From NCBI GenBank assembly GCA_043822705.1, contig JBDRBK010000180.1:1-15450 (forward strand): a stretch of 15,450 nt of DNA. Reading direction: 5' to 3'. Source of the stretch: Fidelibacterota bacterium. GTDB lineage: Bacteria; Fidelibacterota; Marinisomatia; Marinisomatales; TCS56. A model generated the notes under the pieces. That model did no database searches, was not told where the DNA came from, and saw only the letters and a list, made by a program, of their open reading frames with translations. How positions within the stretch are numbered: the first letter of the stretch is position 1; each line of letters opens with the position of its first letter. A program made the position numbers and the translations under genes. Shown here one piece after another: positions 2,798 through 15,450 of this stretch.

Positions 2798-3543
2798 AAA
2801 AAAGGATCATACCTTGCCTCGACATCCGTGACGGCCGGACGGTGAAAGGGGTAAATTTCGTCAATATCCGTGATGCCGGCGATCCGGTGGAACTGGCCCG
2901 CGCCTACGTGGACCAGGGTGCCGACGAACTGGTTTTCCTGGACATCACCGCCACCGTGGAGAAGCGGCGTACCTTCGCAACCCTTGTAGAACGGATCGCT
3001 CGTGAAATCGATATTCCGTTCACGGTGGGCGGCGGCATCAATTCCGTGGCCGATGTAGCCCGGCTGCTGGCGGCCGGCGCCGACAAGGTCAGCATCAATT
3101 CGGCGGCGGTGGCCCGGCCGGAACTGATCAACGAACTGGCCGGGCAATTCGGCCGGCAGTGCGTGGTGCTGGCGATCGACACCAATCTGGTTGGCGGCGA
3201 ATGGCTGGTGTACGTCCACGGCGGACGAACGGCCACAACGATTAAAACAATTGAATGGGCCACCGCAGCGGAAGCGCGCGGCGCCGGCGAGATTCTGCTC
3301 ACATCGATGGTCAATGACGGCACCAAGAACGGTTTCGCCATTGACATCACCAATCAGGTCTGCCGGGTGGTAAATATACCGGTGATCGCTTCCGGCGGCG
3401 CGGGCACCCCGGATCATTTCGCAGCCGTGTTCCGGCAAACCGGCGCCGACGCCGCCCTAGCGGCCAGTATCTTCCATTTCGGCGAAGTGCCGATTCCGGA
3501 TTTGAAAAATTACCTCAGAACTCAAAACATAGCAGTGCGATGA
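2791..3543 (+). CDS. hisF: Imidazole glycerol phosphate synthase, cyclase subunit
   Basis: Motifs [63 protein letters not shown] and ALAASIFH. Confidence 0.98.
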
Positions 3544-4124
3544 AAATAGATTTCGAAAAAATGAACGGCCTGGTACCGGCCATAGTGCAGGACAGTGTGA
3601 CCAATCAGGTGTTGATGGTGGGTTACATGAATCAGGCCGCCATCGATGAAACCCGGCGCAGCGGCAAAGTGACTTTTTACAGCCGCAGCAAGGGCCGGCT
3701 GTGGACCAAGGGTGAAACATCAGGTAATTATCTGCTGCTGAAGGATATTCTGGCCGACTGCGATGGTGATGCCCTGTTGGTAAAGGCCGAACCGCTGGGT
3801 CCCGTCTGTCACAGCGGCAGCGCCACCTGTTTCAATGAAAATTCCACCAGCGGCTTTCTCTACCGGCTGGAGCAGATCATCGCCGACCGGCAGCGGAACC
3901 CCACGCCAGAATCATACACCAGCAAACTGCTTTCCGCCGGGACCGGGAAAATCGCCCAAAAGGTTGGTGAAGAGGCGGTTGAACTGATTGTCGAGGCGTT
4001 GGGGGATAATGATGAATTGTTCGTCAATGAGGCCGCCGACCTGCTGTATCATTTACTGGTACTGCTGAATGACCGGGGGCTGCGGCTAGTCGATGTGGAA
4101 CGGGAATTACTGCGGCGGCACTGA
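3540..4124 (+). CDS. hisIE: Bifunctional phosphoribosyl-AMP cyclohydrolase / phosphoribosyl-ATP pyrophosphatase
   Basis: HisI motifs [25 protein letters not shown] and CHSGSATCF. HisE motifs [14 protein letters not shown] and [12 protein letters not shown] overlap with hisF. Confidence 0.97.
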
Positions 4125-10964: not shown

Positions 10965-11516
10965 CTACAAGTGGGTTATCAGAATTCGCAGACCGATCAG
11001 GATCAGGATCAGACCGCTAAACAATTCGAATTTCTTGCCGAAGACCTGCTCGGTTTTCCGGCCCAGGTAAATACCCAAAATCGAGAACAGCATCGCCACG
11101 ATCCCGATGATAACGCTGGGATACATAATCCGGATCTGAATCACCGACAGGGTCAGACCGATTGCCAGGGCATCGATGCTAGTGGCGACGGACAGGGCCA
11201 GCAGCGACCAACCCCGGGAAATATCACGATCAAACTGCTCGGTCACTTGAAAGGATTCATAAATCATTTTGCCGCCTATAAGTGACAACAGTCCGAAGGC
11301 AATCCAGTGGTCGATGTTTTCCATATACCCTATGATGGTATTGCCCGCCAGCCAGCCCAGCACCGGCATCAGAAACTGGAACAGGCCGAAATGCCAGCTC
11401 AAGCGAAACACATGGCGGTAAGTAAGCGGGCGGATCGTGGCGCCGGCCACCACCGATACCGCAAAGGCATCCATGGCCAGGCTGACGGCAATTCCCAATA
11501 TGGTAATAGTATTCAT
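10965..11516 (-). CDS. mntP: Manganese efflux pump MntP
   Basis: Motifs SLAMDAFAVS, FGLFQFLMPVLGW, DHWIAFGLL..IGGKMI and ATSIDALAIG. The start is re-assigned to ATG 11516 (MNTITILG, 183 aa), matching the usual family length. Confidence 0.93.
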   Translation of the reverse strand: MNTITILGIAVSLAMDAFAVSVVAGATIRPLTYRHVFRLSWHFGLFQFLMPVLGWLAGNTIIGYMENIDHWIAFGLLSLIGGKMIYESFQVTEQFDRDISRGWSLLALSVATSIDALAIGLTLSVIQIRIMYPSVIIGIVAMLFSILGIYLGRKTEQVFGKKFELFSGLILILIGLRILITHL

Positions 11517-11529
11517 GGCAGAAGGACTG

Positions 11530-11560
11530 AAATTAGGCCGTCCGTCCTGAAAAACGGCAA
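11530..11560 (-). promoter_or_regulatory. Possible mntP promoter
   Basis: TTGCCG-19 nt-TAATTT on the - strand, 13 nt before the mntP ATG. The spacing is long. Confidence 0.25.
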
Positions 11561-11562
11561 CC

Positions 11563-11587
11563 AAAATGGCCGGGCACGGTACCGGCC
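11563..11587 (-). terminator. Possible weak intrinsic terminator after proA
   Basis: GGCCGG-8 nt-CCGGCC followed by ATTTT on the - strand, 7 nt after the proA stop. Confidence 0.35.
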
Positions 11588-11594
11588 GCTGCTG

Positions 11595-12854
11595 TTATTC
11601 CCGAACCTGGCCGCTACCACGCACTACAAATTTTGTCGTCGTCAGCTCGCGCAGACCCATGGGACCGAAAGAGTGGAGTTTGGTGGTGCTGATGCCGATC
11701 TCGGCCCCCAGCCCCAGCTGGCCGCCGTCGTTGAAGCGGGTCGATGCGTTGACCATGATCGCCGAACTGTCCAGGCTGCGAACGAAACGCTCCTGGTTCT
11801 CCGGCGATTCGCTGACGATCGCCTCGGTGTGATCGCTGGAATAGCGCTGGATATGCTCGATGGCCGCGGCGATGTCGTCCACCACCCGCAACGCCAACAC
11901 CAGGTCCAGGAATTCGGTGTCATAATCATCTTCCGTGGCCGGTTTAACGGCGGCTGAGTAGGTCTGGGTCTCGGCGCAACCACGAATTTCCACACCGGCG
12001 GCGGTAAGTTGCTCGATCAGCGCTGGCAACAGGGTCGGGGCGGTCTGGCGGTGCACCAGGACGGTTTCAGCGGCATTGCAGACACCGGGTCGCGGCACTT
12101 TGCTGTTCAAGACGATCGCCAGGGCCTTGGCGGCATCGGCCGGGTAATCGATATAGACATGGCAGTTGCCCTTGTAGTGGGCAATGACCGGCACGGTCGC
12201 GACGCTTTTCACGCGCCGGATCAAACCCTCGCCGCCACGAGGGATGATCACGTCCAGGCAGTCATCCAGGCGGGCCATGATGTCGACCGATTCACGGTCG
12301 GTGACCGGAATCATGTTGATTACATCAGCCAGTTCCTGGTCCCCCAGCACCTGCCGCATCAGATCGACCAGCGCCCGGTTGGAGTGGAAGGCTTCCGAGC
12401 CGCCCCGCAGCAGCAGACCATTACCGGCAAAGAAGCACAACGCCGCCGCTTCCACCGTCACATTCGGGCGCGACTCGTAAATCACGCCGATAACGCCCAG
12501 AGGAATCCGCCGCTTCTGCACCTGCAGGCCGTTGGGCCGGGTCCACTGTTCTGCAATTTCACCAACGGGGTCGGGCAGGGCGGCCACTTCCCGGACGCCG
12601 GCCGCCATCTCGGCGATGCGCTGGTCGTTCAGGGTCAGGCGATCGATCATCGCCGCCGCCATTCCCTGTTGGCGGGCCGCTGTCAAATCAAGCTTGTTGG
12701 CAGCGATTATTTCCGCTTGATGCTGTTCCAGTCGCTCGGCTATCTGCATCAGAATTAATTGTTTTTGCATGGTTGTCAGGGTCGGCAGAATCCGGCTAGC
12801 GGATTTAGTCGCCCGGCCCAGGGCATGGATACTGGCAGTCAAATTATCGTTCAT
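11595..12854 (-). CDS. proA: Gamma-glutamyl phosphate reductase
   Basis: Motifs PLGVIGVIYESRPNVT, LRGGSEA, IIPRGG, GNCHVY, CNAAET (catalytic Cys), HTEAI, VNASTRFNDG and GAEIGISTTKLH..GPMGL. ATGA overlap with proB. Confidence 0.98.
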   Translation of the reverse strand: MNDNLTASIHALGRATKSASRILPTLTTMQKQLILMQIAERLEQHQAEIIAANKLDLTAARQQGMAAAMIDRLTLNDQRIAEMAAGVREVAALPDPVGEIAEQWTRPNGLQVQKRRIPLGVIGVIYESRPNVTVEAAALCFFAGNGLLLRGGSEAFHSNRALVDLMRQVLGDQELADVINMIPVTDRESVDIMARLDDCLDVIIPRGGEGLIRRVKSVATVPVIAHYKGNCHVYIDYPADAAKALAIVLNSKVPRPGVCNAAETVLVHRQTAPTLLPALIEQLTAAGVEIRGCAETQTYSAAVKPATEDDYDTEFLDLVLALRVVDDIAAAIEHIQRYSSDHTEAIVSESPENQERFVRSLDSSAIMVNASTRFNDGGQLGLGAEIGISTTKLHSFGPMGLRELTTTKFVVRGSGQVRE

Positions 12855-14050
12855 TTTACCTCCGTGGTTATGACCAGGTTATCGCGATGAATCACACCCC
12901 GTTTATAGTGGAAACCCAAAATGCGCTCGATGGCGGAAGAGTGCTGGCCGGCGATTTTAGTGACTTCATCACTGCCGTATTCGACAATGCCGCGGGCCAC
13001 CTCGGTGCCATCCTCCAGACAGCAGCGGATGCCATCGCCCCGTTGAAACTGTCCCCGGGTAGCCAGTACGCCGGACGCCAGCAGGCTGACCTTCTTCTGC
13101 GTCAGAGCCCGCGCCGCCCCGCGGTCGATCACCACCGCCGCCTGTGGTCGCATGGCGTGCGCCAAGTAGGCCTTCCAGGAATTCAGTCGTTCGGTTGTGG
13201 GTACGATCAGCGTTCCAAGCGGTTCGCCGGCCAGCAGACGCAACAGGATATCCGGTGTACGGCTGTTGGCGATCACCGACGGTACGCCGTACTGGGCGGC
13301 CATCAGCGGCGCCTCGAGTTTGGTTGCCAGTCCGCCCCGGCCCAGCCCACCACTGCCGTTTTTACCGTTGCGGGTTGCCGCCAACAGGTCTTTTTTAATA
13401 TCCTGCAGTTGCTCGACAGTCAGTTTCTCGTAGGTTCGGGCAGCGGGATTCAACTTCGGATCCGCATCGGCAATTCCGTCAATGTCAGAAAGTATAATCA
13501 ACTGATCGACCGTAATCAATTTGGTACACAGGGCCGCCAGAAAATCATTGTCGCTGAAACGAATCTCTTCGGTGCAAACCGTATCATTCTCGTTGATGAT
13601 CGGCAGCACCCGACGGCTGATCAATTTCTTGATCGTATTGCGCGTATTCAGATAACGACGCCGGTTATTCAAATCGTCACCGGTCAGCAACAACTGGGCG
13701 ATCGGCAGGTTGTACTGCTCCAGCGCCTGCTGGATGATTCCCATCAGCAGCGGTTGGCCCACGGCGGCCGCGGCCTGTTGACTGACGACAGTGGAACCCA
13801 GTCCGCTCAGTATCTGGCGACCCGTGGCCACGGCGCCACTGAGGACCAGAATCACCGTCAGGCCCTGCTGGTGCAACCGGGCCACCTGTCCGGTCAGGGA
13901 ATTTATCTGTTCCCGGTCCAGCCGTCCATCGGGATGGCAGATACTGGAGCTACCGACCTTGACGACGATACGCGCCAGTTTCTGGAACTCGGGCCGTCCG
14001 GACACGACCATCCCGGCTGTGGTAGAATTGATATCCTGTATTTGTCTCAT
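12851..14050 (-). CDS. proB: Glutamate 5-kinase with C-terminal PUA domain
   Basis: Motifs IVVKVGSS, SGAV, AAAAVGQ, AQLLLT, PIINENDTV, DND and GGLATK. PUA domain (IDRGA..AL...SLLASGV...G.F.RGD, IHRDNL). Confidence 0.96.
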   Translation of the reverse strand: MRQIQDINSTTAGMVVSGRPEFQKLARIVVKVGSSSICHPDGRLDREQINSLTGQVARLHQQGLTVILVLSGAVATGRQILSGLGSTVVSQQAAAAVGQPLLMGIIQQALEQYNLPIAQLLLTGDDLNNRRRYLNTRNTIKKLISRRVLPIINENDTVCTEEIRFSDNDFLAALCTKLITVDQLIILSDIDGIADADPKLNPAARTYEKLTVEQLQDIKKDLLAATRNGKNGSGGLGRGGLATKLEAPLMAAQYGVPSVIANSRTPDILLRLLAGEPLGTLIVPTTERLNSWKAYLAHAMRPQAAVVIDRGAARALTQKKVSLLASGVLATRGQFQRGDGIRCCLEDGTEVARGIVEYGSDEVTKIAGQHSSAIERILGFHYKRGVIHRDNLVITTEVK

Positions 14051-14066: not shown

Positions 14067-14096
14067 AAAAAAGCCCCCGGGAGACCCGGGGGCTTT
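14067..14096 (-). terminator. Strong intrinsic terminator (attenuator 3:4) ending 16 nt upstream of the proB start
   Basis: AAAGCCCCCGGG-TCT-CCCGGGGGCTTTTTT on the - strand, a perfect GC-rich stem followed by U6. Confidence 0.9.
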
Positions 14097-14121
14097 CAAA
14101 TTGATTCTTTTCAGGAAAAGA

Positions 14122-14196
14122 TTAGACGAAGCCGGCGGACCTCCTGCGGTTCAGGAAGCTGCGAGGGGTATGATCATATCGGCTGCGTCGCATCAT
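14122..14196 (-). CDS. Putative leader peptide MMRRSRYDHTPRSFLNRRRSAGFV (24 aa, 7 Arg)
   Basis: ATG ATG ... TAA, below the ORF-track size cutoff. Its last codons are the 5' strand of the antiterminator and its stop is 25 nt from the terminator. There is no SD, so it is possibly near-leaderless. Confidence 0.55.
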   Translation of the reverse strand: MMRRSRYDHTPRSFLNRRRSAGFV

Positions 14197-14204
14197 AATG
14201 GCGC

Positions 14205-14236
14205 CGAACTTAGGATCGGACCGGCGCCACTGGCAA
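14205..14236 (-). promoter_or_regulatory. Putative promoter of the leader-proBA transcript
   Basis: TTGCCA-18 nt-TAAGTT(CG) on the - strand, the same geometry as the element at 9911-9942. The predicted start site is around 14199. Confidence 0.45.
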
Positions 14237-14271: not shown

Positions 14272-15450
14272 TCAGGTAATATTCACTATTTCCAGCATCT
14301 GCTGGTAATCCTTCAGGAAGCGCCGGCGGATTTCGGCATTTTCCGGCCGGCGGAGATGGGGGTCCTCCGCCACCAGTCCGAAGGCTGCCTGCCGCGCCTC
14401 CCGGATCAGCGGTCCGTCGGTGACCATATCGGCGATTTTATATTTCACGAACCCGCTCTGCCGGGCACCGTAAAATTCCCCGGGGCCGCGCATTTTTAAA
14501 TCCTCGTCGGATATTTCAAACCCATCGCCGGTTCGCTCCATGATCGCCAGCCGCCGGCATGAATTATCGGTCGTGTTGCGCCGCACTAGGATACAATAGC
14601 TTTTGTCGCTGCCACGCCCCACCCGGCCGCGCAACTGGTGCAGCTGGGTCAGGCCGAAACGTTCGGCGTGTTCGATCAGCATGACCGTGGCGTTAGGCAC
14701 GTCGATGCCGACTTCGATCACCGTGGTGGAAACGATCACCTGGATTTCGTTGCGCTCGAAGGCATCCATTACGGCGTCCTTTTCCTCTTTTTTCAGGCGG
14801 CCGTGGATCAAACCAACGATCAGGTTCGGAAAAACGGTTCGGGATAATTCTTCGAAGGCCTCGGTAGCCGCCGCCAGATCGGATTTTTCGGTTTCTTCCA
14901 CCAGCGGATACACCACCATGCACTGGCGTCCCCGCCCGACTTCCTCGCTGATGAAATCATACACTTTGGGCAGCCGCTCCGGTTCGACGACCCTGGTAGT
15001 CACCGGAATCCGGTCTTTGGGCATTTCATCAATGATCGAAAGATCCATGTCGCCGTGGTAGGTAATCGCCAGGGTCCGGGGGATCGGCGTGGCCGTCATT
15101 GCCAGCAGGTGCGGATTCAGTCCCTTGGCCGTCAGATCGCCGCGCTGCAGTACGCCAAAGCGGTGCTGCTCGTCGACAATTACCAGACCAAGCGCTGCGA
15201 ATTCCACATCCTTCTGGATCAGGGCGTGGGTGCCGACGACAATATCGATCCGGCCGGCCAGCAACCCGGCGAGCAGTTTGCGGCGTTCGCCGGCCTTCTG
15301 GTTGCCCACCAGCAGGGCGCAGGTCATCCTGGCCGCATCGGCGTACTTTTTAAACGAGCGGTAATGCTGGTGCGCCAGAATCTCGGTGGGCGCCATCACC
15401 GCCACCTGCAGCCCGTTGCCCACCGCAATCGCCGCCGCCAGCACCGCCAC
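14272..15450 (-). CDS. recG: ATP-dependent DNA helicase RecG, C-terminal part (5' truncated by the window edge)
   Basis: Motifs MAPTEILAHQH, VVGTHALIQ, DEQHRFGV, MTATPIPRTL, HGR, STTVIEVGIDVPNA, ERFGLTQLHQLRGRVGRG and the TRG motif DGFEISDEDLKMRGPGE. Confidence 0.98.
   Translation of the reverse strand: MAVLAAAIAVGNGLQVAVMAPTEILAHQHYRSFKKYADAARMTCALLVGNQKAGERRKLLAGLLAGRIDIVVGTHALIQKDVEFAALGLVIVDEQHRFGVLQRGDLTAKGLNPHLLAMTATPIPRTLAITYHGDMDLSIIDEMPKDRIPVTTRVVEPERLPKVYDFISEEVGRGRQCMVVYPLVEETEKSDLAAATEAFEELSRTVFPNLIVGLIHGRLKKEEKDAVMDAFERNEIQVIVSTTVIEVGIDVPNATVMLIEHAERFGLTQLHQLRGRVGRGSDKSYCILVRRNTTDNSCRRLAIMERTGDGFEISDEDLKMRGPGEFYGARQSGFVKYKIADMVTDGPLIREARQAAFGLVAEDPHLRRPENAEIRRRFLKDYQQMLEIVNIT

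Follow-up and report, generated by a model that had tools for sequence, protein, structure and literature searches.

An arginine-codon leader ORF and intrinsic terminator before proBA form a likely ribosome-stalling attenuator in Marinisomatota

The window, by which we mean the whole 15,450-nt stretch that was analysed, carries on its minus strand proB, encoding glutamate 5-kinase (12851–14050; TIGR01027, 372 bits against a cut-off of 186), followed by proA, encoding glutamate-5-semialdehyde dehydrogenase (11595–12854; NF001221, 582 bits against a cut-off of 289), and by a gene resembling that of the manganese exporter MntP (10965–11564; PF02659), which is probably co-transcribed. Because the mntP-like gene lies directly 3' of proA both here and in a second genome, G004, it may share the attenuator of proBA. 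The upstream neighbour, also on the minus strand, is the 3' part of recG (14272–15450, a profile match), which lies outside the element described below; relatives have other genes upstream of the leader. The one RNA run matched 0.09 of words, covered only parts of recG and is uninformative for the leader.

Between recG and proB lies a leader of about 130 nt. It contains a 24-codon ORF (14196–14122, MMRRSRYDHTPRSFLNRRRSAGFV), of which seven codons are Arg and one is Pro and which has homologues in relatives, and an intrinsic terminator (14098–14067), recovered by terminator search and by folding, with a 13-pair stem (14097–14069) and a U6 tract (14072–14067). The distance from the U tract to the first proB ATG is 16 nt, and a promoter scan found no promoter-like site in this gap. 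The 5' strand of a predicted antiterminator (14144–14127) lies inside codons 18–24 and pairs in two segments, 14144–14136 with 14088–14080 and 14133–14127 with 14098–14091, so that the 5' arm and loop of the terminator (14098–14080) are at the same time the 3' strand of the antiterminator. The duplex has a predicted energy of −20.7 kcal/mol. A small spacer hairpin (14121–14106) follows the stop codon, and a 1:2-type hairpin (14159–14139) competes with the antiterminator from upstream. All of these elements had been proposed by the initial annotation, and a read-out by coordinate places each of them where it had put them. Its account lacked two features, the Arg richness of the ORF and an outer anti-antiterminator helix in which 14189–14180 pairs with 14135–14126, that is, Arg codons 3–6 with the antiterminator strand. 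The predicted control codons Arg3, Arg4 and Arg6 (CGA, CGC and CGA; 14190–14179), assigned from folding and codon usage, thus double as the 5' strand of this outer helix. The 176-nt region as a whole folds with a z-score of −4.2, and none of 200 shuffles was as stable.

A putative promoter lies upstream of the ORF, with a −35-like hexamer at 14236–14231, an 18-nt spacer and TAAGTT at 14212–14207. This site was missed by a sigma-70 scan and is read from its letters and from a motif that recurs among homologues, a TTG near −39 and TAnnTT near −16 to −11 of the leader ATG. Transcription is predicted to begin at about 14200–14199. Since a Shine-Dalgarno motif precedes the leader ATG in just 1 of 36 leaders, these uORFs are likely near-leaderless. 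We also observed an inverted repeat around the putative −10 box (14230–14197, minus strand) and another before the argG leader of the same genome (G000:C172), the two differing in sequence.

We modelled translation of the leader by masked folding, using an RNA truncated at the terminator loop together with a ribosome mask. For A sites 1–15, the terminator 5' arm was sequestered at 0.67–0.77 in this truncated RNA, and at A sites 10–13 (Thr, Pro, Arg, Ser) the full antiterminator helix was the minimum-energy fold. Pro11-Arg12 (14166–14161) is accordingly the predicted stall site that frees the full antiterminator. Sequestration fell to 0.03 or less at A sites 18–21 and to 0.00 at the stop codon, in line with the earlier proposal that a ribosome at the stop would favour termination. 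When only the footprint was masked, the profile was noisy, with 0.14–0.58 at late codons. Three of the seven Arg codons, Arg17–19, sit where stalling would favour termination; lying at or in the antiterminator 5' strand, they are predicted by the model not to act as control codons. Across leaders, an early mask led to antiterminator formation in 43 of 46.

The layout of uORF plus terminator recurs in relatives of two classes, kin that do not count as independent cases, so that the conservation of the uORF on which the initial reading depended is found. In the class of the window, 307 genomes were surveyed, with proB in 22 and argG in 51. The layout occurs at nine of the 22 proB loci, the others lying behind argH (11) or behind other genes with no terminator (2), and at 29 of the 51 argG loci, the others having an abutting upstream gene (19) or no upstream sequence (3). 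The 38 class leaders are ORFs of 17–28 codons that end 17–40 nt upstream of the terminator. Of 30 genomes in the second class, nine have argG and these same nine have proB; an Arg leader is present at all eight readable argG-argH-proB-proA operons. At KSB1 argG loci the layout was found at 2 of 50. Upstream of proB, no Arg leader turned up in KSB1 (29 readable loci; 30 of 33 matches fetched), in metagenomes (70 loci) or in GTDB (74 loci), and there was no leader terminator at the sister-family loci with a detected proB (14 of 31). Several loci depart from this pattern. Before argG in G107 and G108 (L145, L138), which are small AT-rich genomes, the terminator is retained and the uORF is Lys-rich with a single Arg; these leaders can be read as degenerate or re-specified. 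At three KSB1 loci before argG (L238, L240, L247), a conserved frame end with four consecutive Arg codons lies about 100 nt upstream; a U-tract terminator is lacking, and the arrangement may be a translational variant. In G203, G211, G141 and G034 (L259–L261, L102), the his operon continues straight into argG-argH-proB-proA.

The codons of these leaders point to arginine, possibly together with proline, as the sensed amino acid, which the initial annotation had left unnamed; this assignment is read from the sequences. In the first 14 codons past the start, nine proB leaders hold 37 Arg codons against 12.6 expected, and 28 argG leaders (one with Ns left out) hold 142 against 39.5, values reached in 0 of 2000 composition-matched shuffles in either set. 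This is an enrichment of about three-fold. The Arg runs draw on several synonymous codons, chiefly the rare CGA, which makes up 76 of 180 early leader Arg codons and 7.6% of Arg codons genome-wide in long ORFs. The argG leaders also show an excess of Asn (47 against 21.7 expected), and Pro is not enriched in proB leaders (12 against 15.9 expected by composition).

Proline nevertheless has to be considered on its own, with Pro11 as the control codon and the Arg codons as by-products of GC-rich pairing. Pro11 falls inside the best stall window, and the presence of a Pro codon in this window follows proB: 10 of 11 proB-containing units against 3 of 24 others in the class (one leader with no helix dropped, and G017 counted as a proB unit though its proB is 400 nt from argH), 7 of 8 leaders in the second class, which was read afterwards, 18 of 19 against 7 of 27 overall, and 7 of 7 against 0 of 8 in family f21, a comparison that was asked after the enrichment counts, uses a window of our own definition, draws on kin that are not independent and concerns a single codon. 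In addition, proC is present in 25 of 31 genomes with proB and in 1 of 13 without it, so that proline synthesis is a real second role of proBA. An attenuator answering to proline only, however, would leave the Arg excess over composition-matched shuffles, which Pro lacks, and the varied, mostly rare Arg codons as accidents, and the same leader heads argG operons with no Pro in the window. We therefore regard it as very unlikely. The argG leader of the window's own genome (G000) also has a Pro codon in the stall window, and the CC of the Pro codon may simply pair with the G-rich strand. Dual sensing of Arg and Pro by one leader is a possibility to which we give a little under even weight.

Another reading of the Arg runs is that the nascent peptide itself, inside the ribosome tunnel, senses ornithine or arginine by binding it and arrests translation, as for SpeFL. 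Arg-codon leaders with a metabolite input do exist, as the available parts of the reports on the speF leader describe (PMC6386406; 10.1101/604074). Here, the leader peptides compared by eye share only their Arg runs and no conserved motif, while length and sequence vary freely, and the stop codon lies 17–40 nt before an intrinsic terminator, as in attenuators that sense tRNA charging. These features make a metabolite-binding arrest peptide highly improbable at this locus.

We then consider whether the terminator is linked to translation of the ORF at all. When the ORF end was shuffled, 2 of 200 sequences equalled the window's antiterminator duplex, and 8 of 34 foreign terminators pair equally well with the window's G-rich strand. 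An alignment of 35 leaders was too poor column-wise because the helix register shifts; therefore, we compared cognate with non-cognate duplexes and counted covariation at the family level. Over 37 leaders (G107 left out for its Ns), cognate duplexes between ORF end and terminator have a mean of −19.4 kcal/mol. Partners taken from other genera reach −13.6 and −13.7, and shuffled ones −12.7; the cognate duplex was stronger than the other-genus partners in 35 and 36 of the 37 and stronger than shuffles in all 37. Column-wise covariation covers family f21 only, and the window was left out of this alignment, since the register of the helix is not constant within its order. Among the 16 f21 leaders, the 12-pair helix shows 20 both-side changes against 9.3 in shuffles (0 of 500), with 77% of cells paired against 70.5% in shuffles and 19–43% in slid registers, while two of the five covariation measures, both at the pair level, did not rise above shuffles (288/500 and 460/500). 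The antiterminator thus covaries, as the initial reading had led one to expect.

On the full-length RNA, the terminator fold is ahead by 13–25 kcal/mol under every mask, and the switch must therefore be kinetic. The same result is what one would see if this were a constitutive terminator of recG, or the end of a small RNA, with a chance ORF and with proBA read by leakage: the terminator is the equilibrium fold under all modelled conditions, and recG ends about 175 nt upstream. Such an arrangement, however, does not explain why the element accompanies argG or proB behind differing upstream genes, and from it neither the cognate pairing and covariation nor the Arg enrichment and the conserved promoter-like motif before the ATG would be expected, which leaves it only a very slim chance of being right. 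A riboswitch, T-box or protein-bound attenuator with an incidental ORF would have a precedent in the T-box control of B. subtilis proBA, as described in the accessible part of PMC9245794, yet it is extremely unlikely for a leader of about 130 nt that has no such family in Rfam even at E ≤ 10 and that keeps its reading frame and Arg codons although little of its primary sequence is conserved (mean column identity of 47% in the leader alignment). The Rfam search gave no match at gathering score; at E ≤ 10, it returned only weak, terminator-driven matches, with His_leader at 24.7 bits (gathering score 49) and Phe_leader at 23.1 bits (55), both below threshold. The conserved uORF, the covarying antiterminator, the absence of an Rfam family at gathering score and the lack of a promoter-like site after the terminator together support the trp/his/thr-type attenuator logic that had been suggested for the locus.

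The genome of the window has a second leader of like build, before argG (G000:C172), with 23 codons, five of them Arg, and a terminator near-identical to that of the proB leader. In global alignment with 45 other leaders, the proB leader scores highest against this one (103, the next being 87), and we regard the two as paralogues. A scan of the whole genome found 54 terminator-like hairpins preceding genes, and an Arg-dominated uORF was present only before proB and argG. The scan also contains a His-codon leader ORF (21 codons, 4 His) with a terminator before hisG (G000:C138, about 3428–3555), on a different contig from the window's his genes (hisC onward), and a Tyr/Phe-rich 25-codon leader ORF with a terminator before a prephenate dehydratase-like gene (G000:C179, about 17110–17245), which we take to resemble pheA. 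Leader-peptide attenuation is therefore apparently used elsewhere in this organism.

An attenuator on proBA that answers to arginine would make sense because ProBA, as judged from gene content, likely provides not only P5C for proline but also ornithine for arginine. In the class, 21 of the 22 proB genomes also have argG, and in 15 of the 22 proBA lies beside argG or argH. The genome of the window has argF, argG, argH and carAB; argB, argC and argJ were not found in this 93% complete assembly, nor were proC and ornithine cyclodeaminase. Matches to argC occur in 17 of 54 genomes. As a sign of the acetylated route, they were rejected for four of these 17, the clusters inspected, which are LysW clusters with lysW/lysX. 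One locus (L267; G112:C11 29600–38300) carries lysW, two lysX paralogues and lysYZJK, followed by an Arg leader and argG-argH, with no proB, so that a LysW-dependent ornithine route is possible in G112. Neither proB nor an argC match is present in 20 argG genomes.

A search of 54 genomes for the regulator ArgR found it in one, G004, whose argR heads argG and whose leader precedes proB. The order argG-argH-proB begins with an argR-like gene in two sister families; the scores of 100–127 bits lie below the cut-off of 130 (six tested), and no terminator precedes argG at the three such argR-headed loci that could be tested. In five sister-family loci, a class-III aminotransferase gene lies between argH and proB; in these argR-headed operons (L413:1804-3288, also L410, L414, L421 and L423), it encodes a 495-aa protein with an N-terminal extension. 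From its position, this operonic aminotransferase is a candidate for the enzyme that would convert the semialdehyde to ornithine. The genome of the window has an ornithine aminotransferase (OAT)-like protein that scores 371 bits, below the cut-off of 378, adjoins lysine-degradation-like (saccharopine-pathway-like) genes and is not an orthologue of the operonic aminotransferase. An OAT-like match at E ≤ 1e-80 was absent from 10 of the 14 class genomes with proB and no argC match, and was present in all five tested genomes of the second class.

Taken together, the element is real, conserved and attenuator-like, and we consider it likely, reading from sequence, that the region is an Arg-codon leader ORF plus intrinsic terminator, a ribosome-stalling attenuator read by Arg-tRNA that raises proBA expression when charged Arg-tRNA is scarce. 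In the mechanism we propose, transcription would start from a promoter about 10 nt upstream of the ATG and yield a near-leaderless mRNA. With arginine plentiful, the ribosome is predicted to pass codon 17 and reach the stop, covering 14144–14127 and letting the terminator form. With arginine short, a stall at Arg3, Arg4 or Arg6, or at Arg12, would open the 1:2 helices, and the freed 14144–14127 strand would capture the 5' arm and loop of the terminator before its 3' arm is synthesised. Glutamate-5-semialdehyde made by ProBA would then, rather more probably than otherwise, be converted to ornithine by a class-III aminotransferase and passed on to ArgF, ArgG and ArgH. The Pro codon beside the Arg run might add a proline input, as in multivalent thr/ilv attenuators, an idea that we hold at not quite even odds. 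A more comprehensive scheme for the Marinisomatota is tentative and less likely than not: ornithine made unacetylated by ProBA and an aminotransferase, a two-input attenuator in place of ArgR, duplicated from argG to proBA, and a Pro codon next to the Arg run in every unit that includes proBA.

Classical leader-peptide attenuators, such as hisL, trpL, leuL, pheL and the multivalent thrL and ilvL, combine a short uORF, clustered codons for the pathway product, alternative 1:2, 2:3 and 3:4 helices and a terminator, and the synthesis of arginine and of proline are their usual exceptions, the former being under ArgR and the latter under a T-box or no control. Like them, the present element has a conserved short uORF, clustered amino acid codons, an intrinsic terminator and a mutually exclusive, covarying antiterminator, the clustered codons fitting proBA only if, as the gene content suggests, ProBA feeds arginine. 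Unlike them, it has Arg control codons, a near-leaderless uORF and a His_leader score below threshold. In E. coli, the available part of PMC6345581 describes attenuation for the His and Trp operons, ArgR control for arginine and proline synthesis lacking enzyme-level regulation. In B. subtilis, according to the accessible part of PMC9245794, a T-box acts on proBA and AhrC on the arg genes. Termination control of proBA by tRNA charging would be common to B. subtilis and, as predicted, to the window; the B. subtilis T-box, however, is a tRNA-Pro-binding riboswitch with no peptide, whereas the leader here matches no T-box and its codons indicate Arg.

The other Arg-codon leaders found in print work in other ways. 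The speF leader of Salmonella and E. coli (orf34, SpeFL) resembles the one predicted here in being a uORF with consecutive Arg codons at which pausing changes downstream expression (PMC6386406). It acts on ornithine decarboxylase by way of Rho, RNase G and RBS structure, and its 34-residue peptide is conserved, in contrast to the intrinsic terminator, the biosynthetic genes and the lack of a conserved peptide found here. Similarly, rbfL of Staphylococcus aureus is a leader ORF that senses arginine by rare Arg codons (PMC13009471), as is predicted here, but at Arg shortage it keeps translation of a biofilm regulator from being initiated, with no terminator switch. The suggested route itself resembles that of mammalian intestinal P5CS and OAT, which leads from glutamate through the semialdehyde to ornithine with no acetylation; PMC5372011 covers OAT working in the direction of ornithine, calls the reaction reversible and treats the prokaryotic enzyme as degradative. 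Unlike the mammalian pathway, the route suggested here is deduced from gene context alone, and its transaminase is only a candidate.

The literature covered describes no Arg attenuator for an arg or a pro operon; subscription papers, supplements and the survey of Lopatovskaya et al. 2010, the widest attenuator survey we know of and one that could already list such leaders, fall outside this coverage and may bear on novelty. The accessible parts of PMC8632094, PMC4833913 and PMC5317091 hold no arg or pro leader. What is most likely new is the Arg-codon attenuator on proBA, the attenuator type itself being known. Its distinctive features, for what is most likely an Arg-tRNA-sensing element, are its position on proBA, its complementarity with ArgR, the unacetylated ornithine route that it implies and a possible dual input from Arg and Pro. 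With an element of 130 nt and dozens of natural variants, the system is small enough for reporter or in vitro work. If the reading is true, an Arg-codon attenuator on proBA adds Arg specificity to leader-peptide attenuation, in an uncultured phylum, and the leader is a regulatory tag indicating that 'proline' genes serve arginine synthesis. Such a tag could explain how ornithine is supplied in genomes that have argFGH and lack argB, argC and argJ.
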